Source of the DNA: a virus
Lineage: Duplodnaviria; Caudoviricetes
Strand: one strand, 5' to 3'
Virus record (IMG/VR): IMGVR_UViG_3300046697_000236
Span: 1 to 58,275 of that record
Length of the DNA: 58,275 nt
Shown: positions 2,331-43,220 of the stretch, in pieces
How the letters are laid out: the number at the start of each line of letters is the position of its first letter
Numbering within the stretch: the stretch's first letter is position 1
Position numbers and translations under genes: made by a program
The notes under the pieces: model-generated
Seen by the model: only the letters and a program-made list of their open reading frames with translations
Databases searched by the model: none
What the model was told of the DNA's origin: nothing

Positions 2331-3704
2331 TTAGGAATTCGGTGTGATAACGCAATGAGTTGCTGTGTGAACGGTCAAAATGGAGAATGATTCATCACCA
2401 AAATAAGCGTTGACATTACGCTGTCCTGATTCTTTCAGCATAAGTTTGTTTAAAGCAAATGGGAATAAATCAGCACGTATGATATTATTAAGATCAATGA
2501 TGACACCCCAATCAGAATAGCCCTGACCAACAATATCAAAGATCGGATGATATTTAATATTCAACGTTCCGAATGGTGAATTGTATTGACTAAAATTGAT
2601 ACCGAATACGGCGGTTGTATTCTTAGCTTCGATCTGCTTCAGGTAGCTCTGTGATCCCATCAAGGCATTGATGAGATTCGAACCTGCGAACATAAATCTT
2701 TCGGGAGTACCATTGTTTGCTGCAAATACTTGCTTCATCATGGCCCTCATGTCCTCATCAGTGAAAGTATGGTTTCCGGCAGTTTCACCTGCTTTACCAT
2801 ATTTAAACATATTATTAGGAGCTACTTTTTGGATAAAGCCACCCATCATATATACAGTATCATTGATACTATTTACTACTGTTCCCATCTGTCCAAAAAG
2901 GAAGGTGGAATCCAAGGAAGCTTTGTAATCATAAATACGATCACGTTCTACGGTTGTGAAATCAAAATCAGAAAACTCTTTTTTCTGGAATCTTTCTACA
3001 AAGGTTTCTTCAAACTGAATACCGAAACGCTGACAATAGTTATTCTCATTGTTCGGTATACGAGCATAAGCACTTATCTGTGCAGCCTTTTCTGACATCG
3101 ACGATCCACAACGGCCAATAGATGTGCTAATTGGTAAAGCTGGCAGATCAGGGGCATTAGGTCCCTGTGTGTAAACCACCATCGAATTTCCTCCGATATT
3201 CACAGAGTCTACATATACCATAATATTCTGCGTAGGATCACTTGTGTTAATAGTAACAAGGCATGTATCTCCAGCATTCCACATGCGTGGGTTGTTAACC
3301 AACAGAGTTCCATAAGCCTGTCCCGGTACGTGGGTGTATGCTGCCGATAAGGTATCGCCAAATTCACGACCCTGCAAAGCATAATCTCTCACGGTCCAAC
3401 CTTCAGCCTTCATGCTTCGTTTTGATTCATGGATCATGGTATCAAGGGGAGCGATAGATGGATATTGTTCAATCAATTTCTGATAGACAGCAGGCAGATT
3501 CATTACTGATGTTGCCGTAGTATCTACCGCACCAGCACCACTGGTTCCTTCAACTACCGTGGTGGCTCCAAGTGCCATTATCGAACTGCCACCCAGTCCC
3601 ATAACTGCCAAGAGGTTCACTCCGGCCATTCCGCAAACCACAATAGCTGTGCCAAATAAGGCCAGCGAAAATAGCGCTACTCGTTTTAAATTTATTTTTT
3701 TCAT
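2331..3704 (-). CDS. Major capsid protein (SU10/DUF5309-like) with hydrophobic N-terminal extension
   Basis: NYCQRF, FLFGQ, MGG and SPFGTLNI..HP motifs; follows a scaffold-like gene and is followed by a hairpin. Confidence 0.75.
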   Translation of the reverse strand: MKKINLKRVALFSLALFGTAIVVCGMAGVNLLAVMGLGGSSIMALGATTVVEGTSGAGAVDTTATSVMNLPAVYQKLIEQYPSIAPLDTMIHESKRSMKAEGWTVRDYALQGREFGDTLSAAYTHVPGQAYGTLLVNNPRMWNAGDTCLVTINTSDPTQNIMVYVDSVNIGGNSMVVYTQGPNAPDLPALPISTSIGRCGSSMSEKAAQISAYARIPNNENNYCQRFGIQFEETFVERFQKKEFSDFDFTTVERDRIYDYKASLDSTFLFGQMGTVVNSINDTVYMMGGFIQKVAPNNMFKYGKAGETAGNHTFTDEDMRAMMKQVFAANNGTPERFMFAGSNLINALMGSQSYLKQIEAKNTTAVFGINFSQYNSPFGTLNIKYHPIFDIVGQGYSDWGVIIDLNNIIRADLFPFALNKLMLKESGQRNVNAYFGDESFSILTVHTATHCVITPNS

Positions 3705-3728
3705 TGTTTTGTTTATTTTACGTTTATA

Positions 3729-24500: not shown

Positions 24501-27500
24501 CTAAGGTCTTCGTCTCCATTTAATATACTATTGGCTGATTTCAGCTCTCCTTTTCTTGTCTTACTATTTTTGGCATATTCATTCGCAGACTGAATCCTAT
24601 CCATAACCCTGTTTTTTGTAGTCACAGGCACCGTGGCAGACTCCTTGCCCATTATCATTGATGGTTTTACATAGGTCAACGGCTTCTTGGTCAGTCTTGG
24701 ATGTTGAACAAACTCAGCAAATTCCTCATTGGTCATTGTGGTTGTTGCTCCATGTCCAACCCAGTCAATAGAATAATTCTCACGGTAGGCATGTTCAGCT
24801 GCAGCCTGATATTTAAATCCGATCATGGCTTTGTACTCGTCAAATTCTCCGGAAGGGTCAACCTGATCAATAATATAGGTGTTCTTTGAAGCTAAATCGG
24901 GACCAAGGAAAACATCAATATGTTCGCCGGTACGATCTTTCGTTCCAAGAATATACCCATAAGGATTCTTCATTTCGGTTTTCCATTCCCTGCCTTGGGG
25001 GTCGGTTCCGGTTCTGACTGATCCGCGCGGGTTCTCAATAGAAATAGTCAACCCATTAATGTTCATCTTGCCTTTCGGGTAGTTGCCTGCTTCGATCTGT
25101 GCCTTGGAAGGATTCATCTCTGTTTCCTTTTCGGCTTGATCTAATTTCTTTTGAAGTTTTACTTCTTCAGGTGTTTGAAATATTCGACCTGTTCTAGTCT
25201 CTTCTTCGCCTGTCCCTTTGATAGGTTCGGTGCTGATAGGTTCTTGCCCTTTTCCGATACTACCTTGTATCCCTGACTTGTTTTTACTAACATTTGATTC
25301 TGGTTTTAATTCATCATGTTTTCTTTCCTCTTGCCTTCTGCTATATTCTTCCGGATTTTCTTTTTTAAGTTTCTCCATTTCGGCATCCGCTTCCGCCCAA
25401 TCATTTTTTCGGGGAGTATTTCGAAACTCTTCAGCATCTTTGGCAATCTTCTCTCGCGGTTCAATATCAGCGGGAGAGCCAGCACCTTGTTCAACCGGGT
25501 GCTGTACTCCAGATACATTTTCCTGAACAGGAGTAGTAATCTGTCCGCCTTCGGGAGGTGAACCCTGGTTCCCCTGAGTTCCAACCTCTTTTTCTTTTGA
25601 TAATATTTGCCAACCTGGAGTCATTTTGTTTCCAGTATTAACTTTCTTTAGTTCTAATACGAAATCGTCACCAATTTGCTCATTTAACTTATCAATTGCA
25701 ACTTTAGCCTCCGAGAACGTCATCATTTGTGAAAGCGATTCCCCCTTATTTTGTGTAGGAGTGAAAGTTGCTGCATTCTTATCTTCATATTGCACAACTA
25801 CTGGTTGCGGTTGTGCCTGTACTTGTTGTTGCGCTTGCTGTTCGACTTGGTTCTGTGTGGCTTCATCAATGTTCGGAGGGATGATTTGATCGTAATCCTT
25901 AGGATCAATATCAATTGAATTCTGACCTTCTACTGCAATTTTAATCCTTCCGTTCTGAATCTTCCGTATTCTTCCTTCCCTGCCACCAGAGAGCTGTATC
26001 ATGTCGCCCGCCTGTAGTTTGTTTACATAAAATTCGGTTAATTGATCTTTGATTTTATCAACAGGATATGCTTGTTGCATGTTGGCAACTTCTTTTTGAA
26101 TATATTCATCTTTGGTGAACTCACTAACAGGTGTTAGTTTATCATTCAGAATCATTTTTTTCTTTCCCTCGATAGGGTCATATACTATAGATGTCTCGTC
26201 ATTTAATGCACTAATCACATGAACGGGATTGCCTTCTATGTCTGTAGCTGTCTTAACTGTACCGGTGGCCTTGTCAGCATTTTGATTATAATTATCATTG
26301 GCTTTTTGATTATATCTGTTATTCCATGCTGTTTTTTCCGCATCTTCGAGTCTTAGTTGTCCGTTCGCCAATGTTTCTTTTATCCGTGCAGCGTCTTCTT
26401 TGGTTATCCTAACCGTGTTATTTAACTGATCCATAGAAACTGACCCAATAGATCCATCACTATTCACTATCTGAACTGGGACGTTTCTTTTAACATTGGC
26501 TTGTTCGTCACCTTCAAGCGATTCCCATGTTTTCCCATATAGTTTTTGAGAAATATTATCAACAATTTTATTCATGTTGGGATTACCCAACACAGCAACA
26601 ACACTTCCATCATCGGTCCTTGTGCCAAGATTATACCCGAATTTGTCAAAGTTTTCCTGTATGTTTTTAGGGAAACCTTTCATTGCGCCAACACCACCCA
26701 TAAATCCACCCATCAGCATCATGGGAAGTGCACTCGTGGCGAATATTTTCCCATAGTTTTTCCAATCATCAATCTTACCTGTGGGTAGCTCGTTAATAAA
26801 TTTAGTCGATGCTGCTAGCCCCCCCATGGTCAGACCGGCATTAATGCCATTTTTCAGTGCGGCGTCAGCAATATTCTTAAGCATATTTGGTGCTTCGGGA
26901 GCTGATGTAAGAAATTTAGATATGGCATAATCTGCAATTTCGGGATCAAGCTTCATTAATTGTGTTGCCGCAAAATCAGAAAGATATTTTCCCTGCATGG
27001 ACTGGGCAAGCTTCCCTCCCCATTGGCTCATAAATATTTGATTTAGTGCCCCTGACATTAATACCGCCCCTCCTTTTAGATATGGATTAATGTCCTCCCC
27101 TGTTTGTTTCTGATAATCATCAAGATTCTTAAGCGTTCCGCCCATTTGGTCCGCGGTCATTGTTCCAATCATACCTTGAGTCAATGCCCGACCTACAGTT
27201 CCAGATATTCCACCTATACCTTCACCTACCCCACCAACCGCAAATAAAGCTATAGGAAGTATCTGTTTTACAGCCTCCGCCCATCCCGTTGTGTTTTCCC
27301 CCTGCTGCATCCACCGTGCTCCCGTTGTTTGCATTTTGTTGCCAAGGTCGTCTTGGTTTAACGTGGAAATTTGTCCAAGAACTTCGGGTGTTGTCTTATT
27401 AGTACTTGGCGTTTCTGCTGGCAGGAATAATCCTCCGCTCATTCCTCCAAGACTGCCGATATTTTCAGCTCCTGTCTTGTAATCAGGAGAAATCAGCTCA

Positions 27501-28369
27501 CCAATACCTTTATACAACTCCTTTTCGGACCGTAAGCGATTGTCTTCGGTCTTTAAATCCATGTAGGTTCTTTTGTTCCATGGATGATCAATATACTTTT
27601 GATCCTCATCAATCCCCTTCATTAATGCAGCTTCTTGTGGAGTACCTTTTAAAATAGACGATAAATTATTCAGCTCTTCTTTGGCTGATTCAAGATAATT
27701 TATCTTCTTATCCATGTCGTTAATAAACGAGCCATTAGTAATTGTCTGATTCTTATCTAACCAATTATTTGAAAATGCATTATGTTGATTTTCAACATCT
27801 TTCGATTTGTTAAAATAGTCCTCCGGATTGTCTCCCAAATCCTCAAATTTAACTCCTTGGGTTTCTAGTGTTTTTTTAAGACACTCAAGCTTAGCTTGAC
27901 CTGAAAGATTTTTTACTGCTTCACCTGCTCCATAAAGTATTGGTCCTACAGTACTTTTTCCAAAAGCTTCTACTCCCTGCAGGGGGGTTGTTAATGACTT
28001 GATTTCTTTGGGTTGTTTATACGAGGGATCCATCCATTCCGCTGCTTGCTCTGAGGCAATATTCGGGAGATTTGCGGCTTGATTAAATTCATTACCAACA
28101 ACATCTGATCTGTCTTTATTTGTTATTGCCCAAGAAGGAAGCTTATTCTCTATTTCAGGACCTGATGCACCTTGGTCTATTTGGCTATTTTGTTTATTTT
28201 CCCCAATGCTTGCCGAACCGCCAACTTCTTTTCCTTTGGGAGAATAACCGTATTCTTCATCAATAAGCTGGTCGTCTGTTTTTGGAACAGAAGTATCAGC
28301 CTCTGGGTCTTTAACCTGAGAATTGTATAAAGAATCAAACTGCGCGAGTTCTTCCGGAGTAAAAGGCAT
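15545..28369 (-). CDS. Giant polyvalent (probably ejected) protein with PPase-like, zincin peptidase, JAB/RadC and LPD38-like domains
   Basis: YGYILGT..GEHIDVFLGP (~24750-25120), HEVGMHYGLR (~23760), HNHPSG..PSGEDI (~19685), LPD38-like C-terminus. Confidence 0.75.
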   Translation of the reverse strand: MPFTPEELAQFDSLYNSQVKDPEADTSVPKTDDQLIDEEYGYSPKGKEVGGSASIGENKQNSQIDQGASGPEIENKLPSWAITNKDRSDVVGNEFNQAANLPNIASEQAAEWMDPSYKQPKEIKSLTTPLQGVEAFGKSTVGPILYGAGEAVKNLSGQAKLECLKKTLETQGVKFEDLGDNPEDYFNKSKDVENQHNAFSNNWLDKNQTITNGSFINDMDKKINYLESAKEELNNLSSILKGTPQEAALMKGIDEDQKYIDHPWNKRTYMDLKTEDNRLRSEKELYKGIGELISPDYKTGAENIGSLGGMSGGLFLPAETPSTNKTTPEVLGQISTLNQDDLGNKMQTTGARWMQQGENTTGWAEAVKQILPIALFAVGGVGEGIGGISGTVGRALTQGMIGTMTADQMGGTLKNLDDYQKQTGEDINPYLKGGAVLMSGALNQIFMSQWGGKLAQSMQGKYLSDFAATQLMKLDPEIADYAISKFLTSAPEAPNMLKNIADAALKNGINAGLTMGGLAASTKFINELPTGKIDDWKNYGKIFATSALPMMLMGGFMGGVGAMKGFPKNIQENFDKFGYNLGTRTDDGSVVAVLGNPNMNKIVDNISQKLYGKTWESLEGDEQANVKRNVPVQIVNSDGSIGSVSMDQLNNTVRITKEDAARIKETLANGQLRLEDAEKTAWNNRYNQKANDNYNQNADKATGTVKTATDIEGNPVHVISALNDETSIVYDPIEGKKKMILNDKLTPVSEFTKDEYIQKEVANMQQAYPVDKIKDQLTEFYVNKLQAGDMIQLSGGREGRIRKIQNGRIKIAVEGQNSIDIDPKDYDQIIPPNIDEATQNQVEQQAQQQVQAQPQPVVVQYEDKNAATFTPTQNKGESLSQMMTFSEAKVAIDKLNEQIGDDFVLELKKVNTGNKMTPGWQILSKEKEVGTQGNQGSPPEGGQITTPVQENVSGVQHPVEQGAGSPADIEPREKIAKDAEEFRNTPRKNDWAEADAEMEKLKKENPEEYSRRQEERKHDELKPESNVSKNKSGIQGSIGKGQEPISTEPIKGTGEEETRTGRIFQTPEEVKLQKKLDQAEKETEMNPSKAQIEAGNYPKGKMNINGLTISIENPRGSVRTGTDPQGREWKTEMKNPYGYILGTKDRTGEHIDVFLGPDLASKNTYIIDQVDPSGEFDEYKAMIGFKYQAAAEHAYRENYSIDWVGHGATTTMTNEEFAEFVQHPRLTKKPLTYVKPSMIMGKESATVPVTTKNRVMDRIQSANEYAKNSKTRKGELKSANSILNGDEDLRNKYEITTDTDGDSFLIDKYSRKPVRRDVVKTARTEIESHPSLKEYDDPKFVEFVNTLLTDPRGKFWGVSNVGGEQATRDITKGKKSVASNKALDELKRQFDGNTIRAEKRNIPVDEWMDSMGDLNALSDISPNLIEDIEVPFKNEEEEIVPSKTFIDPKPTDNEVENITSMFNALDQFSENRPEILVHSFEDRLFKPNTSYSGGYFHGIRTAEFITDKIINSKERKDLGLSVSEYSKYLYVHEVGMHYGLRGILPEADIKQLCEKVFDYAENNDKAAFDRLKRLYPKAEKWQLGEEYLTHIAEKMHMEGELNFTKPEAKAWIQFLRNLRETIRKIFGKDIPLAYEDLKKIVHAAFNYHLTNSETTFKNEDINKTTEEDQPDLFSSVPGRDDNGLEAMGNGMAESGRSTIQNGNRLSEGGRPGIQESENTNVSPMVDNNKIEKKGILVSDQRRIKEAEANIQNLKDKIKQIARDKQAKINEIANRTQTQQSLAGFEGKKAVQQSMFDVNPDIDIENIKRILDPFEADKARVEAEIIRNHKLIEGIKRTAGDQWVLFKVEEIGTPIFHRGTEIHKIENQFSLKNEDFQDDNIYVSRGFISALKRGSIPTDDTTSEFHHYFVKDAERGFKAKKIYFKDQSLFKNESTEVFYSNTLRAIDKIQQEKATSEQWMAMLLKNGAKQSEMDWMGLPEFLKENPKLTKSDLTKFVNENKVELKEVVKEQAKVSQNDLDRINELTELRQKRRFTPEESKEFNTINDRLQIGSTDNTKFKGYVLPGGKNYKEWLLTMPSKPMTFEEYKNDSARNGVVFGSEERAKESYSEYLKEPGTDISKKENFKSSHWDEPNVVAHIRSQEFDEPDGTKSLVKEETQSDWQQKGRKEGFNSDESKAIRKKLHDEWTTVENEMIPLQKKSREGTELTQKETARLFELEKRDKELAEENKKLGLNPAPDMPFKNTEQITGLAFKRMLRYAAENGFDRICWPTGEQQAERYDLSKQVDSIHYDPLIKQLSARKGTQQVLKEQGVVPEKIADYIGKDAANKLLSSEINGAGNYELVGDDIKTQAPGMVGYYDKIEPSWIVKYIKPMGGVVGKHTLPNGVTLHSVEMTPAMLETGLGEQSMFKNEEESTLPEEKEQEVKPLPTFMQPVGRWEHPLDKVTNPMGGIQYLHPRETILNSIQPYHYKINAGLTGSTFLGNLNQAIEPTTLDKYPTLKGTQVAIYIRADFTQPGGWFDRGIRFGKPQLFIKAKSQEQASLMLSEGIKYLMQEVDNGNMSDPQPTGFEKLGFGGLNQIEKKHAGTGLYFVAHKNAGQLQYRLFKGTDPSKTILPDWDKKLPISIYDNLLKTAQDNPIAHKFLPNIIALKNSNFGQIYNNLSHFSDDSTVNEILREAGIKGWKRTEGDDTEYVVPDNSDLSIDHVQLLEPNVEYSQKDDIFVQVLNDAVNKLQDSDNINKSYGSKSFLQEYFQKAIDEAVMESKPKNTMGAGKQLSFDFVGRYNIPDQSSTEIPENHIIQGFAESLHISFAGQVIKFPRDIAQLFSLQRSPYIEKGHVVFVDKSGKIIANHSETLGIPSATSLGSKIDDTHDDNFIQIARMAKELNADVYLLHNHPSGNHLPSGEDIRATKNIAAQLTSGSEFKGHIIIDHNKFTIIYANGEFEEKEYKEPVDKLILPTPKVNDVILMTQFAKRLLTEKQLPSAIIMLNSQLKVAGYIPLLNSDITLLINEINEHVKNAGLYAAKHYAIVHDGSIKTTSLLKEQRSLSDGLIDIIDTKINQSYNSVIFQSPVQIRPVIKGYRLGEPEQRYLSEGIEKAVSIFGLTKNIRNAGFILPDGRMLNFVKDGRRLEHINIAKAFADFEAKPLEDQSHDKYDEARTYLERFIHDGAIRISAGDGMVEMNQHPTDEQLKLIGEALGDYRSRIFIDVHHDNGQTNSIEIPTAKGAEDIISEIKSKLNEPVEKKNYVSPVNAFFKNEEDPDQLMNEYLKDHMGNRRYLSIEEAIREAVQDTMLPVKKFMFDVVRAGGKITDDMDVWAKANSAASIMMSKDKELKTDFIEPFLDIAMKTAHEAGVDEQKLQEYMRAKDAIGRNKFKRIQNKDTEPKVYAGSIGNNPLTDDFAQRIINDLESKVDKKTIEKFWDQWRDLTDKNIDMNVEFGMLSISDGQKIKASWKDYVPQRGWKDDQSELFDYQNTQMGGAFNGLQKAKGRESQSADPIAQMINMAQCTIAYGVKNTYNQSMLHFVEANQLTKEGKPLLKGIVEPREVYYIKTKDEDGNESIEETYEKPKAELLKSGRAALKLFAEHKRLRPAEVAKQHEVPVMINGNKVRLVFGNEKMGSLVEVANALNKNNIQTISLAKLLDAPSKFLGRTTGWLSRSATGWNLAFQIPNLLRDLQYAWQANALFNNQGWAYAKNMGRALATIKDSFGKHFDPSTNPDHALYKLYTDNGGPTGFVNAQKISAIEKDLANVYKRYTGTNGILDKIGQSSALRWSKETFEKLSSFSEQTARFATFVTSIEKGRSVLTAIKDAKDVTSNFDTKGTLGKILGANYMFFNPSIQGADHALRMSGVGHEYDFPYTNEKGEYEEGKSNKQRNQRRKAMGVDALGWMVVGYFTAWVNSTIGNIDPVDGKPYYEKISPYVKHNNMIIPTMNEGHHVSIPIGFYFRNWYGLGAGLYEIVSGQTELGTGIGQALNGFTNAFAPVDVGGFVDRKGDFSCRPLIPGYGMGIHDLWSNEDYAQHTITREPFSQALEKVLPSSSLGKENVNPLIKGMTDFSFYVAGGNPNKHTLVNQRSELRGIQENVWKIADWNPSKVEYFLQYYTGGLGQFFNQLYKTTTHAVAAGTNIVSGKDAPFEKAGFEINDIPIFNRFYRNTYGDADMQEFNKLREENAAAKQNYSISTPAEIANYMSHPETARLYLRYKFMDNIEKHERKVSKLENKVDESNKDLITADETQENKIQLKKERADRIHNYLQMIKEADDAADNELKKHKP

Positions 28370-35284: not shown

Positions 35285-36121
35285 TTACATTGGTGAATAA
35301 ACAGACTGCCGGGATTTATCATCTAGAGGATTATAAACTTGGCTGATGTCCTGGTTGTGGTAATAATGCAAAATACTTTTAATTGATCTGTGTCCGGTCA
35401 TCTGCATTGTCTTTGGCAAACTTGCGTTATCAACCAACTTTGTAATGTATTGATGTCTGAAGCTGTGAGGGGTTATTTTCCTGCCGATCTGCGTTTCGGC
35501 TTCATGGAGTACATTTCTTATGCTTGTCTCAGAATATTGGCCTCCATTTGGATTTTCAAAAAGATACTCTTTTGGATTAAACCTTTTAAGATATGCCAAG
35601 ATATATTTTTTCGCTACCTCATGAATCTGAACATCCCGGTTAATTCCATGCTTTAAGGTGTGAATAAAGATTTTGTCATGGATTAAGTCTACTTGAGATA
35701 ATTTGATATTGAGTAATTCCGATATTCTTATGCCAGTCGAAAATAGAAGTATTGTAAAAGTTTTATGTTTCAGATTACTGATTGATTTCATTACAGATAC
35801 AAATTCCTCATAGGTCATTACTTGGTGAAATTTCTTTTCAGACTTAATTGGAACAAACCAATTCATTTTGTTTGGCTGTTTCAATACTCGTTCATAAAGA
35901 ATTTTGGCTGCACTGCAAATCACATTATAATAGGAATCTGAATACCGTTCCCGGAATCCCGAAAAGTATCGTTTCAAATCAAGTTCAGACATTCTATAAA
36001 CTCGCTCGTTCTCAGAAAGGAATTTATTCTTTACTGATTTGTAGTTTTCTTTTGTTATTTCCGACAGCGGCATGAGTCCTAATTCTATGGCATACCTTTT
36101 ATTTAACTCTGACAATTCCAT
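35285..36121 (-). CDS. Tyrosine recombinase; integron-integrase-like (cassette recombinase)
   Basis: GIRISE (R), TLKHG (K), HSFRH, GHRS, HYYH and C-terminal NPLD; adjacent to attI-like site and cassette array. Confidence 0.9.
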   Translation of the reverse strand: MELSELNKRYAIELGLMPLSEITKENYKSVKNKFLSENERVYRMSELDLKRYFSGFRERYSDSYYNVICSAAKILYERVLKQPNKMNWFVPIKSEKKFHQVMTYEEFVSVMKSISNLKHKTFTILLFSTGIRISELLNIKLSQVDLIHDKIFIHTLKHGINRDVQIHEVAKKYILAYLKRFNPKEYLFENPNGGQYSETSIRNVLHEAETQIGRKITPHSFRHQYITKLVDNASLPKTMQMTGHRSIKSILHYYHNQDISQVYNPLDDKSRQSVYSPM

Positions 36122-36147: not shown

Positions 36148-36181
36148 TTACCTTTATTGTAATTAATATATGTTATGTGGC
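36148..36181 (+). other. attI-like site; crossover G/TT at 36172/36173
   Basis: AT-rich aattaatatatGTTATGTGGC 51 bp from the integrase start; no hairpin to its left; core complementary to GCCACATAAC at 36339. Confidence 0.75.
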
Positions 36182-36328
36182 ATTAGGCTTCGGTGCATTC
36201 ATTTCTCGCACCAATTCCATTATCTTCTCCATAACTTTAACAACATATTTTTCACTACATTCGGTTTCTATTTTTACACCAGCCCGAACCAATGGTGCTT
36301 CAATTGTAATTTTATATTTATTGTTCAT
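36173..36328 (-). CDS. Cassette 1 hypothetical protein (51 aa)
   Basis: MNNKYKIT...; stop TAA is the TTA of the recombination core. Confidence 0.65.
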   Translation of the reverse strand: MNNKYKITIEAPLVRAGVKIETECSEKYVVKVMEKIMELVREMNAPKPNAT

Positions 36329-36338
36329 AATAATTAAC

Positions 36339-36463
36339 GCCACATAACAACGTGTATAAAACATTGCCCTTCGTGGTCTTTTTTTAGTTTATATTAATTT
36401 TATAATTCTGTTCATTCTATTAAGTTCTGTGTTGGCAACGTTTCATACACGCAGCCGTTAGAG
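36339..36463 (+). repeat. attC-like site 1
   Basis: GCCACATAAC-cgtgtataaaacattgcc...ggcaacgtttcatacacg-cagcc-GTTAGAG. Confidence 0.85.
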
Positions 36464-36540
36464 TTCAATCGGATTGCTCGCACTAAGCCCTCCCGCTGCA
36501 ATCCGAACGAGAAAGCAAAATTAAAATAAATGCCACCCCA

Positions 36541-36873
36541 CTAAAAATAATTAACCTCGTAACTTACTTTCATTCCTTCATCAAAAGAATATAGAGGCGA
36601 AGGAAATTCAAACGTAACAATACGTTCTCCTTCAATGGTATCGTTATCTACATACCATATTTCTTTGTCTGGATATTTTTCGCATATAATACGTTTGAAT
36701 CTCCTTTTGCTAAGATCATTTAATAAATATCCATATCCTTTTTTGATAAGTCGATCTTTAATTATTTCTTCTTTTTTCGCCTCTATATCTGAGGCCTGTT
36801 TCATCAATAATTCATTTAATGAGCGTTGTTTATCACCCATCTCCGAAAATAATGATTCTAAATTTTTATCCAT
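36541..36873 (-). CDS. Cassette 2 hypothetical protein (110 aa)
   Basis: ATG 36873 preceded by GGGAGGT. Confidence 0.7.
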   Translation of the reverse strand: MDKNLESLFSEMGDKQRSLNELLMKQASDIEAKKEEIIKDRLIKKGYGYLLNDLSKRRFKRIICEKYPDKEIWYVDNDTIEGERIVTFEFPSPLYSFDEGMKVSYEVNYF

Positions 36874-36971
36874 ATTACCTCCCAAATTTATTTTAATTAA
36901 GCATCTTTTCTCTTTGAACTCTAACGATCAGTAGCAACAGCCCATCTACATAGTACCCACGCAATCCGACT

Positions 36972-37076
36972 GACTCTAACAAGACCTATCAGCGATATAT
37001 GCGCTGTACTTCGGGGCTGTTTCAGCTTTACTTTATGCGAAGCGCATAAACCGCTGATAGCTCCTGATCGTTAGTC
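36972..37076 (+). repeat. attC-like site 2
   Basis: gactcTAAC-ctatcagcgatatatgcgct...agcgcataaaccgctgatag-ctcctgatc-GTTAGTC. Confidence 0.8.
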
Positions 37077-37200
37077 GCAAACCGCTTGCACCCCAATGAT
37101 GCCCGAAGCGGTCATCCCCTTTAACACACACGGGCGAACAAAACAATGAAATAAAATAAAATTAGTTTTACCACCACACATCGGATTGTACCAATCCGTG

Positions 37201-37230
37201 AAAATAAGGGCTGCTATCATACAGCCCCTA
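37201..37230 (-). terminator. Intrinsic terminator-like hairpin inside cassette 3
   Basis: GGGCTG-tatgatag-CAGCCC-TTATTTT on the minus strand just after the cassette 3 gene. Confidence 0.55.
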
Positions 37231-37245
37231 TCAATATTACCTTAA

Positions 37246-37461
37246 TCAATCCTTAAGGTCAACCAATATCCAACTATCAGCCGATACCAGTTCACTCCTG
37301 CCATTATTCATGCAGGTTTTTTTTCCATTTAATTGAGCAACTGAATCTATTAAATCTAATAGATTCCCTGATAATTGATCAAGTTTTTCTGTCTTGTCGA
37401 TAAGGGTTTTTACTCTGTTTTCAAGAAAATACACCCTGTTTTCTAATTTTTCTTTTGTCAT
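37246..37461 (-). CDS. Cassette 3 hypothetical coiled-coil protein (71 aa)
   Basis: MTKEKLENRV...; A-rich upstream region. Confidence 0.65.
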   Translation of the reverse strand: MTKEKLENRVYFLENRVKTLIDKTEKLDQLSGNLLDLIDSVAQLNGKKTCMNNGRSELVSADSWILVDLKD

Positions 37462-37638
37462 ACTTTTAATTGTTTTAAATTTATAATAAAGATAATAAAA
37501 AAATAAAAATTTCCTTCCCAAAAAACTAATTTAATTTATTTCAAAGTTTCTTTGTTCTTTTGCGACTAATGGCCGAGGCTGAGAGGCGTAATGTAATACG
37601 GCTTCTTTCTGTATCATATTACCCTTGCAAGTGGTCAG

Positions 37639-37743
37639 ACGACTAACAGGTCTGTAAACGTAATCGAGCGTATTACAAAAGCCTCAAACTCTCGTCGGGC
37701 AAAACAAAACGCCCGACTACGTTTACAGCCTCGGCCATTGGGA
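37639..37743 (+). repeat. attC-like site 3 (non-canonical A/TT core)
   Basis: acgacTAAC-ctgtaaacgtaatcgagcgt...acgcccgactacgtttacag-cctcggcc-ATTGGGA. Confidence 0.8.
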
Positions 37744-37880
37744 AGAATTATGCTCGCACGGCTATCCGCACAAAGCATCCACCTTCCACCACACTCACCA
37801 AAAGCAAATTCTTCCCAATGAGTCGGGCATAAGGCCGTCCGCACATTCCATCTATGACTTGCGCCTCCCCGCAAAACTCT

Positions 37881-38129
37881 CACCAACAAGTCATAAATGA
37901 AATAAAATCTATGACTTTTTTCGCCACCACTCACATGATCTATATGAACGTAGTACCCTAAATAACCCAGTACTATTATTAATATAATTTAATACGCAAA
38001 CACCCTTCTGATATTTGACAACTCTGTCATAATAATCACAGTTTGTACATTTTTTTTCCATATTTATATAATTTACATTTCGCACAAAAGTCATAAATTT
38101 TACATTCACTTATGCCCGACTCGTTACCT
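37881..38129 (+). repeat. attC-like site 4 with a gene in its loop
   Basis: cacCAAC-aagtcataaatgaaataaaatctatgac...gtcataaattttacattcacttatg-cccgactc-GTTACCT. Confidence 0.7.
37909..38061 (-). CDS. Cassette 4 small Cys-rich protein (50 aa)
   Basis: MEKKCTNCDYY...C...CEWW, possible zinc-binding. Confidence 0.6.
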   Translation of the reverse strand: MEKKCTNCDYYDRVVKYQKGVCVLNYINNSTGLFRVLRSYRSCEWWRKKS

Positions 38130-38666
38130 GCAATGCCTTTCAACACTTGCGATAGTGTCGTGAATAGCCCCGCCATGTGAAAATAATGCAATTCGCTCAA
38201 CATTAAAGCCTCTATTAACTCCCATTGTGTTACTGTGGTAGCCGAAGGTTATTACAAGTCCATTTGGTTTTAGTATTCTCGGTAGTTCATCTTTAAGTTG
38301 GCGAAACGGTGAGGCTTTAATACCTTTGTACATTTCCATACTTTTACGATATGCGTATGGCGGGTCTAACAAAACCGTAGCAAACCTATCTCCATTCCAC
38401 TCTTTTACAAATTGTAGCGCATCTTTGTTATAGTCTGCCAACGCTTCAATATCAAGGTCGTTTCTTATTTCATCTATATTTAGCTTTGTTTTGCCAGCAA
38501 ATAAATTAAGCGTCTTGCCTTCGCACGTTTTTTCAGTCCACTCCCTAATAGGTTTGATACTAAACGTCCATCTACTTAATGGGCATTTTATGTAATCGAA
38601 CAACGGCACAGCAGGTAACACGGTATATAGTGCATTGCTTCCGTTCTCTGTTTTTAGTTTATCCAT
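38124..38666 (-). CDS. Cassette 5 DNA adenine methyltransferase-like protein
   Basis: LNLFAG (motif I) and LDPPY (motif IV); starts in the attC loop and stops in the core. Confidence 0.75.
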   Translation of the reverse strand: MDKLKTENGSNALYTVLPAVPLFDYIKCPLSRWTFSIKPIREWTEKTCEGKTLNLFAGKTKLNIDEIRNDLDIEALADYNKDALQFVKEWNGDRFATVLLDPPYAYRKSMEMYKGIKASPFRQLKDELPRILKPNGLVITFGYHSNTMGVNRGFNVERIALFSHGGAIHDTIASVERHCR

Positions 38667-38732
38667 AATTTTAACTTTTGTATTTCAATTTTAGTTTTGT
38701 GATGCAACGCACCATATACCCAATCGTTATAC
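38611..38732 (+). repeat. attC-like site 5
   Basis: GCAGGTAAC-ggtatatagtgcattgc...gcaacgcaccatatacc-caatc-GTTATAC. Confidence 0.85.
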
Positions 38733-38817
38733 CGCAATCCTTCCCAGCTCACACAATCCACCCCCAAAGTATTGCGGTATAACGGGCGAGCGCATTCGCA
38801 CACCGCTGTGAAGGACA

Positions 38818-39071
38818 GCGGATAACACCACATAAAGCAAATTTTATAATCTTAAATTTCACGCACAATCTGTTTTTCATCTATTTCTATCATTGAATCA
38901 TCATCAAAATCATCTCCATCGTAATACCATGAATTAAACATCCAATGCGCAACGTGCCAAAATGGTTTATCTGACCATTTATAACCTAATACCCAATAAT
39001 AACCATCTTCTCTTTTCATATATCCAAAATTTAAAATTATAAAACTTGCCTTATGCGCTCGCCCGTTATGT
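38818..39071 (+). repeat. attC-like site 6 with a gene in its loop
   Basis: gcggaTAAC-cataaagcaattttataat...attataaaacttgccttatg-cgctcgccc-GTTATGT. Confidence 0.75.
38852..39019 (-). CDS. Cassette 6 small Trp-rich acidic protein (55 aa)
   Basis: MKREDGYYWV...; the longer track start crosses the cassette boundary. Confidence 0.65.
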   Translation of the reverse strand: MKREDGYYWVLGYKWSDKPFWHVAHWMFNSWYYDGDDFDDDSMIEIDEKQIVREI

Positions 39072-39137
39072 TCAATTAAATATTTTAAAAGTTTTTTGCC
39101 CACGCTCTCTTTCAATTTTTTCAAAATTGTGAAAAGG

Positions 39138-39716
39138 TTAGTTAAACCATCTAATTACTGTTTCGCCTTTAAATCCTTTCTCCCAAACATACCACGCATA
39201 GCAATTAGCAGAAGGTGTATTGTATTTCACAAAGTCTGCATTTTTAGCTAACAGCAATCTACTGCTGCTCACATAAACATATTTCGGAGGGTATGCTTTC
39301 AAAAATGGTTTTCGCCTTTGTCCTTCTAAAAATTGTATTCGCATAAGCATTACTACTTTACTTCCATCATCTACTAATCTCAATGCGTGTTCGCAAAATT
39401 GTTTCGCATCTCCGTATGGTGGGTTGGTAAGTATATCTCCATTCCAAGTTTCTAATTGCTCATACAAGTTTATTCCTGTTTCGCCATATCCTCTATCAAT
39501 CAAATCACTTGCCCTGCCAAGCAATCCTTTTGCTTCTAACACCTTTGCTAAATGCCCTTCACCACAGGCACACTCCCAAACATTTTTCAATTCTATTTCG
39601 GGCAAAAATATTTCTAATGCTTTCGGGTCGGTTGCGTAAAAATCATTTTCTTCTCTTTCTCCGTCAGCGTGAGCAGATGCTCCTAATGTTGTAAAATCTC
39701 CTTTTTTCATAATCAT
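39138..39716 (-). CDS. Cassette 7 N6-adenine DNA methyltransferase
   Basis: DFYATD, WECACGEG and LTNPPY motifs. Confidence 0.8.
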   Translation of the reverse strand: MIMKKGDFTTLGASAHADGEREENDFYATDPKALEIFLPEIELKNVWECACGEGHLAKVLEAKGLLGRASDLIDRGYGETGINLYEQLETWNGDILTNPPYGDAKQFCEHALRLVDDGSKVVMLMRIQFLEGQRRKPFLKAYPPKYVYVSSSRLLLAKNADFVKYNTPSANCYAWYVWEKGFKGETVIRWFN

Positions 39717-39806
39717 TGTTTTAAGTTGTAAATAAATCCCACCGCACCCCTCTCAAAAAAACTTTTAAAATATTTAACTGCCCTTCGCTCGAAAACCCTA
39801 CGCACC

Positions 39807-39880
39807 AACATAACACCGTATATACGCTATTCTCCCACCCACAAGCAACGCACAACAGCGCATATACTTTTTCGTTAGGT
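39807..39880 (+). repeat. attC-like site 7
   Basis: AACATAAC-gtatatacgct...agcgcatatac-T-run-c-GTTAGGT. Confidence 0.8.
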
Positions 39881-39886
39881 GCAATA

Positions 39887-40786
39887 TTAAAAAATAGCCC
39901 CACCGCACATCGGCTTTTTCAAAGCCGTTTGGATAGCTACATCGTAAGTTACACCATTGTTTTTATAATTCATTCCTATTTCAAATGCTTTTGGTTGTGT
40001 TTCTTTTAATCTTATAAATCTATCGTCTTTGTGGCAACCAAATCCACAAATCATACAGCCTGTCTGTGTTTCTCCTTTGTCGTAAATTTCACAATACGGT
40101 ATTTTGTTTTGTTTTATAAAGTTCCATTTATCTTCATCAGTCCAAATACTTATCGGATAACTTGCAGGTCTATTCACTTCAAAAGCATTGCATCCAGTAG
40201 TTAAGTATTTTTGTAGTCTTAATCTGCTTTCATTTACAGAAGTTCCGATAATTGGAAATAGCTTATTTTCTTTTTCATACTTGTATGCAGGTCGCTTCTT
40301 TAAGTGGTAACAGCATTTTTCTGAAATATCAAATGGTGTATTTATTAAGTGTTGCCATTTATTTGATATTTTGCCCTGATTTCCTTTTCTGCCATTCAAT
40401 CTAAGTTCTAAAAGTTTTTCACTTTTTGTTGTTCTTGCTTCCCTTATGTATTGTGCCTGTTCTTTTGATATTAAGGGAAATCCACATTTTTCAATAACTG
40501 ATTTTAAATTCATTTCAGGCTGTATTTTCACACAGTCAATTTCTTTTATGAACTTATAAATCTCTGGAAATTCATTTGTAGTATTGAAAAATACTGCTTT
40601 AATATCAGGTTTAATAATCCTTGCTAAATGCAGTAATATTGTGCTGTCTTTACCTCCACTAAAAGAAACATAAGCATTTCCATTTGAGTAAGTCAAAGCA
40701 TTTTCAATAGTAAAAAGTGAATGGTCAATCTTTTGGTCAAGTGTCCAATTCAATCTTTCGTTTAATATTTCTCTTGTAATTATCAT
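39887..40786 (-). CDS. Cassette 8 PAPS reductase family protein
   Basis: SFSGGKDS PP-loop, SEKCC and TGCMICGFG Cys motifs. Confidence 0.85.
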   Translation of the reverse strand: MIITREILNERLNWTLDQKIDHSLFTIENALTYSNGNAYVSFSGGKDSTILLHLARIIKPDIKAVFFNTTNEFPEIYKFIKEIDCVKIQPEMNLKSVIEKCGFPLISKEQAQYIREARTTKSEKLLELRLNGRKGNQGKISNKWQHLINTPFDISEKCCYHLKKRPAYKYEKENKLFPIIGTSVNESRLRLQKYLTTGCNAFEVNRPASYPISIWTDEDKWNFIKQNKIPYCEIYDKGETQTGCMICGFGCHKDDRFIRLKETQPKAFEIGMNYKNNGVTYDVAIQTALKKPMCGGAIF

Positions 40787-40835
40787 AATGTGAAAATAAA
40801 AATTTCCCACGCTTCGCTATTTTTTAAGTATTAAT

Positions 40836-42097
40836 GCAAAAGAAATCCCCTATCCCTTTAGGGTAGCGGGATGAATTTTGCCTGTTTTTGTTTGTTATTA
40901 TGGTTATTAATCGTATATTTGCATTGTGAGAGCGTATAAATTCAGAATATATACTACAAGAAAACAAGAGGAGTTGCTGCAATTCACTCTTAATCATTGC
41001 CGTTGGCTTTATAACACAGCGCTTCAACAGCGAAGGGATGTTTATAGGAGTACGGGCAAAAGCATTGGTTATTCCATCCAGCAAAACGAAATGCCTCTTT
41101 TGAAAGATCAGTTTCCCGAATACAGACAGATTCATTCTCAGGTCTTGCAGAGCGTTCTTAAACGTGTTGATCTGGCCTACCAAAGTTTCTTTCGCAGGAT
41201 TAAGCAAAAGGGAGAAAAAGCCGGATTTCCTCGCTTTCACGGCAAAGAACATTACGATAGCTTCACCTACCCCCAAAGTGGTTTTTCGTTTACTAAAGGC
41301 AAAAACAGGATTAATCTTTCCAAGATAGGACTGGTAAAAATTAAACTTCATAGACAAATTCCTCTTGGCACTCAAATAAAAACCTGCACAATTAAAAGAG
41401 AGAGCGATAAATGGTATGCCATTTTCTCCTGTATGCTTTCTAATCCAGCCCCAAAAAAGAAAGCCGTTACAAATGTTATCGGTATTGATCTGGGGTTGAC
41501 CGATTTTGCCGTATTGAGTAATGGAGAAGAAATTGCCAATCCCAAATATCTGAAACAGTCTGAGGATAAACTTAAAGAAATTCAAAGCAAGTACTCTAAA
41601 GGTAAAAGCAAGAAGGTTAAACGACAGATTGGTAATCTTTATCATAAAATCACTAATCAGCGCAACGATTTTCAGCACAAACTTTCTTATAAATTGGTAA
41701 ATACTTTTGATCTTATTGCTTATGAAGATTTGAAAATAAAACAAATGATTGAAGATAATAAATTCAATCTTCAAAAACATATTTCCGATGCCGCTTGGGG
41801 TAAATTTATTTTTATGCTTAAATACAAAGCTGAAAACGCTGGTAAGTATTGCATAGCAGTAAATCCAAAAGGCACAACGCAAAGGTGCAGTCATTGTAAC
41901 TCTGTTGTGAAAAAAACGCTCTACGAACGCTCTCACAAGTGTCCTGCTTGCGGTTTTGAAACAACAAGGGACATCAATGCTGCACTGAACATTGAAAAGC
42001 TGGGTATCAGCTTGGTTGATAAATCTGTATGTTCTGATATAGTTCATCCTTTTTTGTTTTCCGAAGCCGCTTCGCCTTTAGGCAAGCGGTAGTTCAC
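40836..42097 (+). mobile_element. IS200/IS605-family element, TnpB only (IS1341-type), inserted in cassette 8
   Basis: Subterminal hairpins with ctttagg loops at both ends, right end ...ggtagTTCAC, upstream TTAAT; left boundary approximate. Confidence 0.8.
40926..42092 (+). CDS. tnpB: RNA-guided endonuclease TnpB
   Basis: AYKFRIY HTH, GIDLG / YEDL / RDINAALNI RuvC motifs, CSHC..CPAC zinc ribbon; TATATTTG promoter just upstream. Confidence 0.93.
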   Translation: MRAYKFRIYTTRKQEELLQFTLNHCRWLYNTALQQRRDVYRSTGKSIGYSIQQNEMPLLKDQFPEYRQIHSQVLQSVLKRVDLAYQSFFRRIKQKGEKAGFPRFHGKEHYDSFTYPQSGFSFTKGKNRINLSKIGLVKIKLHRQIPLGTQIKTCTIKRESDKWYAIFSCMLSNPAPKKKAVTNVIGIDLGLTDFAVLSNGEEIANPKYLKQSEDKLKEIQSKYSKGKSKKVKRQIGNLYHKITNQRNDFQHKLSYKLVNTFDLIAYEDLKIKQMIEDNKFNLQKHISDAAWGKFIFMLKYKAENAGKYCIAVNPKGTTQRCSHCNSVVKKTLYERSHKCPACGFETTRDINAALNIEKLGISLVDKSVCSDIVHPFLFSEAASPLGKR

Positions 42098-42103
42098 TAC
42101 AGA

Positions 42104-42234
42104 CACCTAACACGTGCTATAAGCAATAGCGGGTTCGCTGGTTATTTGAAGTTCTGTATCTCGTTCAATCATTTATTGTAATTTGAAAGTTTATCACTCG
42201 TATTCCGCTACTGCTCAGAGCACCACCGTTAGCA
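42104..42234 (+). repeat. attC-like site 8
   Basis: CACCTAAC-gtgctataagcaatagcgg...ccgctactgctcagagcac-cacc-GTTAGCA. Confidence 0.85.
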
Positions 42235-42240
42235 GTAATA

Positions 42241-43089
42241 CTACATTCCATCTCCGAATAAAGTTTTCTGCGTTAAATCTTTTTCTTTTCTTTTTTCTCC
42301 CGCCCTTTTTAAAATCAAATCAATATTACTTTGTTCTTTATCAATTAGTAGGTAGTTTCTATTTGTATCAATGCAAACAAGTCCAGTAGTTCCACTTCCT
42401 GCAAAGCAATCCACTATCAAATCACCTTCGTTGCTAAAACTTTTTACAAAAAACTCAACCAACTTTTCAGGGAATGTTGCTGAATGGTCGCTCTTTAAAG
42501 TAAATTGGTTGCTTACATTATTTACGTTTACAACATTTGAAGGTCTTGCAAATTCAAGGTTTCTTATATTGGTTGTGTTCATTCCTGTCATACCACTTCC
42601 GTTTTTTGGCGCACCACATTGTTTTCTGTATGTTCTTGCAATACTTTCTTCCTTCATTGGCGTTCCGCAAGCAATCGGGTTAAATGTTATTTGGTTTGGG
42701 TTTCCTTTTGTAAAGTGGTAAACAGGCTCAAAAGCGTTTTTAAACCTACCTTTCAAACTACCTGGAAATGCGTTTTTAGTCCAGCAATATTCTTCTACAA
42801 ATAAAAATCCAAGTTCCTTTTTTAGCATAATAACCAATTCAAAAACGTATAAACTTCTTTCTCCTTTATTGGTATGCGGTTTTATATTCAAAAAGAAACT
42901 ACCAGTTGGCTTTAAAACCCGTTTAACCTCAATCGCAATAGGTTTGAACCACTCTAAATATTTATCTTCTGCAATACCACCATAGGTATTTTTTCTCCTA
43001 TCTGCATAAGGTGGCGAAGTAAATACCATATCCACGCTATTGTCAGCAAGTTTTTTTAGTTCGTTTTCACTATATCCGTGTATTATCAT
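42241..43089 (-). CDS. Cassette 9 beta-class N4-C/N6-A DNA methyltransferase
   Basis: FTSPPY, HSATFP and DCFAGSGTTG motifs; start probably MIIHG. Confidence 0.88.
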   Translation of the reverse strand: MIIHGYSENELKKLADNSVDMVFTSPPYADRRKNTYGGIAEDKYLEWFKPIAIEVKRVLKPTGSFFLNIKPHTNKGERSLYVFELVIMLKKELGFLFVEEYCWTKNAFPGSLKGRFKNAFEPVYHFTKGNPNQITFNPIACGTPMKEESIARTYRKQCGAPKNGSGMTGMNTTNIRNLEFARPSNVVNVNNVSNQFTLKSDHSATFPEKLVEFFVKSFSNEGDLIVDCFAGSGTTGLVCIDTNRNYLLIDKEQSNIDLILKRAGEKRKEKDLTQKTLFGDGM

Positions 43090-43186
43090 ATTTTTAATTT
43101 TTTCAAAATTATTTTTGCCATCGCTCAAAAAAAGAAAAGAAAAAGGTTCGGTTCTTCGATTGAGCATTTGTGGTTTAAATCCGTAC

Positions 43187-43220
43187 TACTGCTAACATCG
43201 TGCTGAGAGGCGTAATGTAA
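43187..43220 (+). repeat. Left arm of attC-like site 9 (right arm not found)
   Basis: TACTGCTAAC is the reverse complement of GTTAGCAGTA at 42228. Confidence 0.6.

Follow-up and report, generated by a model that had tools for sequence, protein, structure and literature searches.

The genome of a tailed phage held as IMG/VR record IMGVR_UViG_3300046697_000236 (58,275 bp with direct terminal repeats, analysed as the whole record and called the window here) is probably that of a flavobacterial-type phage, and at 36.1-43.3 kb it carries a probable integron-like array of mobile cassettes. The cargo genes, for three DNA methyltransferases, a PAPS-reductase-like enzyme and small ORFs, are enclosed by long-range inverted repeats. 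We propose, with a probability of roughly 0.6, that these repeats are the split halves of an extended single-strand recombination hairpin belonging to each cassette. The proposal draws on the anatomy of the array, on a bias toward one strand, on conservation of the flanks around unrelated cargo and on natural breakpoints at the hairpin cores, all of which are observed.

An earlier note on this DNA had described AT-rich inverted repeats that wrap each cargo gene, and the long-range repeats around the cassette genes are real. The pair around the DNA methyltransferase gene MT192 (cassette C7; 39076-39097 / 39756-39777) is a perfect 22-mer that grows to 25 nt at 96% (39073-39097 / 39756-39780), and the pair around a second methyltransferase gene, MT308 (C9; 42279-42296 / 43128-43145), is a perfect 18-mer that extends to 21 nt at 95%. 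The pair quoted for a PAPS-reductase-like gene (C8; 39883-39898 / 40816-40832) is likewise present, with 12 perfectly paired nucleotides at 39887-98 / 40816-27, but half of these right-arm bases (6/12) belong to an inserted insertion sequence (IS), since a TnpB insertion starts at about 40822. Further pairs lie at 38831-59 / 39027-55 (29 nt, 90%), 38779-95 / 39053-69 (17 nt, 100%), 37820-33 / 38109-22, 37903-19 / 38086-102, 37071-81 / 37559-69, 36456-68 / 36914-26 and 36519-31 / 36886-98. Wrapping therefore does not hold equally for every gene, the methyltransferase gene MT180 and the PAPS-reductase-like gene having weak wraps only. To compare these repeats with chance, the whole window was scanned for ungapped inverted repeats whose arms are separated by 80-1600 nt, and as a control the array was shuffled 200 times with its dinucleotide composition preserved. 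At a score of at least 14, the array (7,334 nt) held 6 repeats versus 1 in the other 50,941 nt and a mean of 0.115 (maximum 2) in the shuffled array; at a score of at least 17, it held 4 versus a shuffle mean of 0.005. Complementarity of at least 12 between the 5′ and 3′ flanks was found for 6/11 open reading frames (ORFs) of the array, compared to 1/58 ORFs elsewhere and 5/600 non-cognate flank pairs.

Read on the gene-sense strand (minus in the window), the array is a continuous chain of stem-loops in which neighbouring helices share 1-6 bases at GTTAx or xTAAC cores. Along the chain, attC-like hairpins, 5′-xTAAC...GTTAx-3′, alternate with hairpins of the opposite polarity, 5′-GTTAx...xTAAC-3′, which surround a gene or, in the modules S3 and S4, nothing. 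The gene-enclosing helix has two layers, the outer extending the core by 8-17 bp and the inner consisting of AT-rich arms of 13-29 bp that finish in a 5′ T-run (T6) and a 3′ A-run (A6), with a G-rich box immediately inside each; in several other phages, both layers are merged in one continuous helix of 20-26 bp. Along the sense strand, a frame opens with a GTTAx core, which is followed by a helix half, T-run, G box (approximately GAGCGnTGGC), AU-rich leader, ORF, G box, A-run, helix half and xTAAC core, and an attC-like AAC...GTT hairpin comes after each cassette frame. Because neighbouring helices share core bases, a gene wrap and the adjoining attC-like hairpin compete for the core. To this extent the previously suggested existence of two alternative conformations per cassette stands, whereas a regulated switch between them is not supported, and the wraps are better described as halves of the recombination hairpin than as a separate device. 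The 5′ segments put forward as alternative pairing partners in two cassettes fared differently: tcggattgc (36469), in the cassette of a 114-aa gene (C2), does have two partners, at 36498 and 36961 (one 9-nt triple), but the exact complement of accgcttgc, in the cassette of a 91-aa gene (C3), occurs only at 42082, and just a 7-bp local hairpin remains there.

Mispairs within these helices indicate which strand folds. We searched 145 sources (492,892 nt of phage DNA) for core-anchored wraps, in which a GTTA and a TAAC had to be separated by 120-1900 nt, to pair throughout positions 1-9 and to form at least 3/5 pairs at positions 12-16. There were 43, versus a mean of 3.33 (maximum 10) for permuted partners. 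Position 11 was G·T in 35/36 distinct wraps (21 loci), and this G·T lay on the coding strand in 30/31 wraps with a clear coding strand; position 10 was T·T in 14 of the 35 G·T wraps. Positions 12, 13 and 14 were Watson-Crick pairs in 36, 35 and 35 of the 36 wraps, figures to be read in light of the preselection for pairing at positions 1-9 and 12-16, which leaves only positions 10-11 unbiased. The MT180 wrap and the outer arms of MT308 carry the position-11 G·T too. Across 25 defined stems of the window, G·T pairs numbered 22 on the sense (minus) strand versus 2 on the plus strand (p = 3.6e-5), while a permissive wobble count of long-range pairs over all loci gave 1371 versus 1285 and is swamped by chance AT-rich matches. 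The sense strand was predicted to fold more stably than its complement in 6/6 cassettes with DNA and RNA parameters alike, with inner-arm pair probabilities of 0.62-0.98 (0.62-0.97 in RNA folds) and a predicted advantage of 25-40 kcal/mol for sense over antisense RNA; the DNA fold of the unit with a 56-aa gene had z-scores of -5.64 (sense strand) and -4.71 (complement). The pairings thus look selected in single-stranded form, as the earlier note had supposed, except that the strand folding best is the G-rich sense strand, not the C-rich plus strand.

Natural variants break at the same cores. Contigs from four other metagenome DNA runs, each with about 0.17-0.25 of the array's words, were compared with the window, and among the matches listed they diverge at 38122, at 39873/39876 and at 42227/42230/42231, each no more than 4 nt from a GTTAx core. 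Further divergence points among these matches are 42276, the outer edge of one inner arm, and 43125, the border between the other arm and its G box. The hairpin stays with its sense-downstream gene at 3/3 core breakpoints among the matches listed, and also in the array comparisons of loci L006/L008 and of L025/L026/L029. The G·T keeps its distance to the GTTA/TAAC core constant, and since this core is where DNA variants break, the helix appears tied to recombination. Among the 24 runs sharing array words, none listed was an RNA run; five presumed-RNA runs share 0.05-0.06 of the words.

The flanks recur around different genes. The frame is portable and independent of its cargo, because locus L095 has the window's arms and leader before a D12 adenine methylase, not an N6_N4 enzyme. 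The same arms and G box accompany an N6_N4 enzyme in L026, L027 and L029 as in the window, the D12 enzyme in L095, and ORF117 together with MT192 in L028, so that identical 18-nt arms and boxes flank different cargo. Comparison of the window with L002 gave 47/58 and 45/56 bases in common in the two frame halves and no similarity in the stretch that separates these halves. Cargo found behind the common leader includes a Mom-family gene, D12 adenine methylase, C5 cytosine methylase, several N6_N4 methylases and genes of no recognized kind. The closest isolated relative by DNA, Flavobacterium phage vB_FspS_mymlan6-1 (86.8% identity across the MT308 cassette), has four methyltransferase cassettes of the same design, and its MT308 homologue has the window's own arms and G boxes; a search with the arm and box pattern added four further contigs. 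Conversely, one gene is found in several frames. MT192 has 23 relatives in viral contigs, 21 of them with both flanks, and 7 of these show flank complementarity of at least 10, each with its own sequence; at 82-84% identity, the gene occurs in different frames in L003/L006/L008, in L004 and in L007. The last of these (2877-3720) is a lone MT192 cassette with its own hairpin and wrap, bracketed by GTTAGTTGCAGTACT / AGTATTGCAACTAAC, and looks like a natural 'filled site'. It is situated between glycosyltransferase and structural genes of an unrelated, more GC-rich phage. Five bacterial loci with an MT192 gene were found, none informative on the integrase.

At the array end lies the gene of a 278-aa Xer-like tyrosine recombinase (35285..36121, minus strand, in the same direction as the cassette genes; Pfam Phage_integrase, 1.9e-23). 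With the gene-sense strand taken as the recombined one, its position is where intI would sit, terminal to the array and pointing away from the top strand. The best NCBIfam match is XerA-type at 112 bits (cut-off 220), and the integron integrase model TIGR02249 scores 66.8 bits (cut-off 265) in two stretches, the best of which covers profile positions 14-174 of 315. The closest solved relative is XerA (1e-15), with IntI4 at 2e-10 over residues 67-203 only. Across 121 host-like-family genomes, the best matches are 28-36% identical, with no tight family link, and peptide patterns applied to viral contigs gave no confirmed relatives. IntI above the cut-off was absent from 201 genomes of the family of the Flavobacterium genome that has an MT192 relative.

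Aside from its recombinase, which fails the IntI model, the array resembles a classical integron in many respects. Both consist of serial units, mostly of one gene each, with imperfect hairpins in between that have ...AAC and GTT... cores at their ends (attC-like by eye at 36351-451, 36921-37074, 39818-78 and 42114-232, between xTAAC/GTTAx cores). The first bases of each unit complement the far-end core, and variants, among the matches listed, break within 4 nt of the core, in keeping with a crossover at G|TT. G:T mispairs and G skew on one strand, as well as a tyrosine recombinase gene at the array end, complete the likeness. In attC sites, it is the folded bottom strand that recombines, within its AAC triplet, bottom strands average 1.24 G:T mispairs versus 0.39 on top strands, and the recombined strand is enriched in G and purines, according to the available portions of Nivina 2016 (PMC5027507). 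Because the corresponding G:T and G-skew marks make the gene-sense strand the recombined one here, the array genes face opposite to those of classical cassettes: they lie on the G-rich, bottom-like strand, with the hairpin ahead of its gene. Other differences are an end-to-end complementarity of 8-17 bp plus inner arms of 13-29 bp (at least 14 bp in 36 wraps), in place of R boxes of about 7 bp, the near-invariant G·T at position 11, and the presence of genes or start codons in some hairpin loops.

Integrase-less attC clusters (CALINs) have been reported in 17 phages, where IntI1 recombined 5/6 tested sites (Qi 2023, PMC9892861, in the parts available). By eye, the window shows several attC-like hairpins, and it has no IntI. 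The reported clusters, like the array, include methyltransferase-rich phage cassettes, among them those of Polaribacter phage P12002L, whose host is flavobacterial. The available text of that paper mentions only 'divergent directions' of the P12002L attC sites, and does not speak of extended stems, wobble, boxes or reversed genes; likewise, our full-text literature search, in which Qi 2023 was available in part, found no description of extended stems, wobble, leader/trailer boxes or reversed genes. At least one GTTA...TAAC wrap surrounds a methyltransferase gene of P12002L itself (L181, 29237-30011; GTTAGGCAC...GTGCCTAAC). This wrap departs from the usual G·T, as its positions 10-11 read T·T/T·T along the gene strand and A·A/A·A along the record strand.

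Other systems share parts of this design. XerCD acts on the Vibrio CTX phage as a Xer-type recombinase at a folded single-strand hairpin site that is marked by mispairs. The likeness lies in a hairpin made from one DNA strand; the difference is that CTX undergoes whole-phage integration at the host dif site, not exchange of gene cassettes. The 'mobile regulatory cassettes' of T4-type phages, or PeSLs, are direct repeats of a promoter with a local stem-loop, and similarly place repeated structured elements on either side of small phage accessory genes that are shuffled among phages; here, in contrast, the unit ends are inverted and anchored on recombination cores.

The proposed route from hairpin to wrapped gene is as follows. 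Strand exchange at the core, in mid-hairpin, would split the hairpin, so that the integrated array has the cargo between its halves. Once a cassette was excised, the helix halves would be adjacent again and form the basal 14-45 bp of the recombination hairpin. Whenever the G-rich strand became single-stranded, pairing of the halves would extrude the cargo as a loop and draw the flanking cores together, and the position-11 G·T, the frequent position-10 T·T and the G-rich unpaired flanks would favour folding of one strand over the other; a similar one-strand bias is seen in the bottom strands of classical attC. We infer a folded form made of DNA, exchange by a Xer-like tyrosine recombinase, whether the phage's or the host's, and a helix that would aid this exchange. 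Excision requires both flanking sites to be folded at once, and on the single-strand pathway long cassettes can reduce it (Loot 2017, PMC5371416, as far as the paper was available). Taken jointly, and at slightly less than even odds, the observations could mean that Bacteroidota phages run a mirror-image, IntI-independent integron. Its genes would lie on the recombined G-rich strand and its hairpins would be 14-45 bp longer than attC. At a distance of one helical turn from the core, a near-invariant G·T, in many cases accompanied by a T·T, would tell a Xer-type recombinase which strand to fold and cut, and a standard leader and trailer (T-run, GAGCGnTGGC box ... G box, A-run) would accept any anti-restriction gene.

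The main competing explanation places the stems in mRNA, where, within one transcript, a helix between 5′ and 3′ untranslated regions would close each ORF for RNase III processing, end protection or insulation; its C-poor, G-rich unpaired spacers could in addition deter Rho loading on long untranslated stretches. RNase III substrates are double-stranded RNA of about two helical turns, and processing stems enclose cistrons in rRNA operons and in T7 early RNA. The array shares with these the long-range pairing of gene flanks on the transcribed strand, and arms of 21-29 bp reach substrate size. The wobbles would be G·U on the gene-sense strand (22 versus 2, and 30/31), the inner arms adjoin the ORFs and some take in a start codon (L003/L008) or the stop codon of the 56-aa gene, the predicted RNA folds favour the sense strand with arm probabilities of 0.62-0.97 and 25-40 kcal/mol of extra stability, and unpaired spacers contain 26.8% G and 13.1% C. 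We nonetheless consider this explanation unlikely. The G·T keeps a fixed distance from a core at which DNA variants break; the helices are in register with DNA recombination cores, also around gene-less modules, which carry the same stems; and in classical attC an equal G:T and G-skew bias marks a strand other than that of the mRNA (Nivina 2016, in the portions available), so that DNA-level selection is enough to explain the bias.

Two further explanations deal with the repeats as DNA without a recombination hairpin. The arms and boxes might be homology handles only, used in RecT-type annealing between co-infecting phages, with their mutual complementarity having no role. The phage does encode a RecT-like protein and a PD-(D/E)XK nuclease, identical 18-nt arms and boxes stand around different cargo, and variants break at the arm edges 42276 and 43125, yet handles need no inversion, and the two ends of a cassette match each other even when they are private to it. 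With the position-11 G·T and strand bias indicating a folded form, and with 5-nt core breakpoints too short for annealing, we find handles alone quite improbable. Alternatively, inverted repeats flanking single genes beside a tyrosine recombinase gene bring to mind small transposons with such repeats at their termini, or sites at which single genes are inverted. Each pair, though, has a private sequence and no flanking direct target duplications; in the loci read in gene orientation, cargo always runs from leader (T-run/G-box) to trailer (A-run) and no flipped copy was found; and the only transposase-like gene is TnpB, itself an insertion; this option is very improbable.

Several observations weigh against the recombination-hairpin reading itself, or limit what can be drawn from its evidence. 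Judged from its sequence, the window recombinase is not an IntI, and relatives of it accompany just 2/10 other cassette-bearing records, in one of which the relative, too, sits downstream, where the array ends. Since the folding strand is also the mRNA strand, the wobble bias does not discriminate between DNA and RNA, and preselection of the wraps confines the unbiased signal to two positions. By the extrahelical-base rule, the extra spacer bases of the AAC-first hairpins would mark the plus strand as the recombined one (read by hand against the accessible portions of PMC5027507), and the reading assigns no role to the G box. Among the matches listed, the contigs of the four DNA runs showed no joints, precise cassette-loss allele or circle junction. 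In array comparisons, both hairpin cores act as breakpoints, the break falling at the other core between L003 and L006/L008 and between the window and L025. Finally, a looser pattern, T6-n-GAGCG-n-TGG, occurs at 70 distinct sites, about 15 of which are cassettes, and T6-GAGCGnTGG sites with enough flank have a downstream partner of at least 12 in 11/63 cases versus 3/67 for the upstream control, so that many matches are unrelated DNA.

For bacteria, the textbook way to gather genes and rearrange them is the integron, whose hairpin sites are considered to require a dedicated integrase domain. The phage array would combine integron logic with a plain Xer-like recombinase or none, reversed genes, much longer hairpins and a fixed wobble. 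If the reading is true, capture of cassettes through folded DNA extends beyond the IntI family, and the trade of methyltransferases and other DNA-modification genes that blunt host restriction among flavobacterial phages is explained. The position-11 G·T and the arm lengths are exact targets for mutation in asking how a simple tyrosine recombinase reads a hairpin, and the design could serve as a compact means of stacking and swapping genes in Bacteroidota and their phages. Clusters of attC in phages are already in print (Qi 2023, PMC9892861, in the parts available), and the system is otherwise only partly described.

The individual elements of the chain can be followed from the recombinase gene rightward, over ten minus-strand ORFs and one insertion. 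The wrap of orf63, a 63-aa gene (36171..36349; arms 36171-85 / 36335-49, cores GTTAT 36172-76 and ATAAC 36344-48), has 14/15 Watson-Crick pairs and one sense-strand G·T at core position 11. It is followed by an AAC-first, attC-like hairpin that contains the orf63 start codon (36351..36451; arms 36351-68 / 36434-51; 16/18 Watson-Crick pairs and 2 sense-strand G·T). The wrap of the 114-aa gene (C2, 36456..36926) pairs 13/13 in its outer arms (36456-68 / 36914-26, GTTAG/CTAAC) and 13/13 in its inner AT-rich arms (36519-31 / 36886-98), with pair probabilities of 0.96-0.99. S1, a noncoding attC-like CTAAC...GTTAG hairpin (36921..37074; outer 36921-35 / 37060-74, inner 36980-37005 / 37041-66), overlaps the C2 wrap by 6 nt and, by 4 nt, the wrap of the 91-aa gene (C3, 37071..37569; outer 37071-81 / 37559-69, inner AT-rich 37154-69 / 37522-37; 11/11 and 15/16 paired). 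The gene-less modules S2 (37568-81 / 37726-39) and S3 (37736-49 / 37807-20) together span 37568..37820, each with 14/14 pairs and a loop that is G-rich on the sense strand. Beyond them, a hairpin with a gene of about 50 aa (37817..38125; outer 37817-33 / 38109-25, inner 37903-19 / 38086-102; 16/17 paired in each) contains the metagenome breakpoint 38122.

The weak MT180 wrap (38123..38619; GTTACCTGC / GCAGGTAAC) is 15/18 paired with a G·T at position 11, and its right core lies about 45 nt inside the ORF of the methyltransferase (38124-38666, minus). S4, a gene-less CGTTAT...ATAACG module (38725..38784), is 17/18 paired. The hairpin with the 56-aa gene (38779..39069) pairs 17/17 in its outer arms (38779-95 / 39053-69) and 26/29 in its inner arms (38831-59 / 39027-55), the latter with 3 additional sense-strand G·T. 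MT192 itself (39138-39716, minus) is wrapped at 39065..39814 by outer arms GTTATGTT / AACATAAC (39065-72 / 39807-14) and by inner arms (39073-97 / 39756-80) whose G-rich boxes, C-rich on the plus strand, lie at 39098-107 and 39738-55. The attC-like hairpin S5 (39818..39878; stem 39818-28 / 39857-67, terminal core GTTAG 39874-78) includes the breakpoints 39873 and 39876, and its terminal core opens the wrap around the PAPS-reductase-like gene (39887-40786, minus), which extends over 39874..42111 with outer arms GTTAGGTG / CACCTAAC (39874-81 / 42104-11) and has the C8 pair (39883-98 / 40816-32) inside. A further attC-like hairpin (42114..42232; arms 42114-32 / 42205-23, terminal core GTTAG 42228-32; 16/19 paired, 2 sense-strand G·T) holds the breakpoints 42227, 42230 and 42231. 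The last wrap (42228..43196; outer 42228-41 / 43183-96 with the position-11 G·T, inner 42276-96 / 43128-48) surrounds MT308, an N6_N4 DNA methyltransferase (42241-43091, minus), with G boxes at 42297-306 and 43117-27, an identical frame in L025-L029 and L095, and variant breaks at 42276 and 43125.

Several placements within the chain merit description in their own right. In MT180 (38619-38723) and orf63 (36351-36451), the start codon and first ~16 codons lie within the preceding attC-like hairpin, with a GTTAx core about 45 nt into each ORF, and the 56-aa (38779-39069) and ~50-aa (37817-38125) genes occupy the loops of AAC-first hairpins, the position of the variable terminal loop in attC. An exact 19-nt direct repeat, GCTGAGAGGCGTAATGTAA, at 37578-37596 and 43202-43220, is shared by two hairpin modules that lack a gene and lie 5.6 kb from each other, and the noncoding modules seem to fall into separate families. 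In another phage (L008, 1025-1931), a perfect 27-nt inverted repeat surrounds four small ORFs.

The TnpB-only IS200/IS605-type element (about 40822-42097, plus strand; Pfam OrfB_IS605 and Cas12f1-like_TNB) is an insertion in the leader of the PAPS-reductase cassette and lies outside the cassette design. Its span (1,276 nt) is exactly covered, at a depth of 36, by a contig of another metagenome run, and the element looks active because these 1,276 nt have unrelated flanks in that run. Other small array ORFs, all on the minus strand, are those of 63 (orf63), 114, 91, ~50, 56 and 60 aa. Elsewhere in the window, Pfam and profile comparison identified a tailed-phage gene set with the RecT-like protein, the PD-(D/E)XK nuclease, a nuclease/FtsK-like protein, an antirepressor and a 4,274-aa ORF, the latter a single minus-strand ORF at 15545-28369. 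Over the whole window, Rfam gave 0 matches at the gathering threshold and ARAGORN neither tRNA nor tmRNA.

The recurrent motifs of the linkers also occur where the earlier note had placed them: cccaccgcac (39738, 39899), cccacgct (39099, 40806), gccatcgct (43117) and ccaccacac (37171, 37786), on the plus strand only. On the gene-sense strand, GTGCG is found 10 times in 1,809 nt of noncoding array DNA versus 0.45 expected from the remaining genome. The linkers had been called C/A-rich; they are C-rich on the plus strand, but not A-rich. Unpaired noncoding array DNA (sense strand; G 26.8%, C 13.1%) has a GC skew of +0.34 versus +0.09 in stems. As a Chi-like sequence, the G motif was rejected, because it clusters in the array (5/8 minus-strand copies of GYGGTGG) and is not spread genome-wide, and ideas of a G-quadruplex, a kink-turn or a priming site for the G box found no support. 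A search of all collected loci for empty frames (arm, G box, arm and no gene) returned none; 8 sites whose box is preceded by a T-run and followed by A-rich sequence were rejected as ordinary leaders.

After the G box, in L049, L083, L095, L117 and the window (43091-43127, sense), reading by hand recovers TTGGCA or ATGGCA, 16-17 nt, ATTAAA, 3-7 nt and ATG. The TTGGCA-N17-ATTAAA leader may be a cassette-borne promoter, although its spacing misfits the Bacteroidetes -33/-7 type in a comparison by hand that also took in sigma-70-like and sigma-54-like consensus sequences. A short element that follows the G box in the 5′ leader reappears before the G box in the 3′ trailer (ATCATTAAATCATT in L102; AATTTTGAAAAAATT in the window, 39108-39137 / 43092-43116), and since the leader element recurs in the trailer, the genes are also flanked by direct repeats in swapped order.

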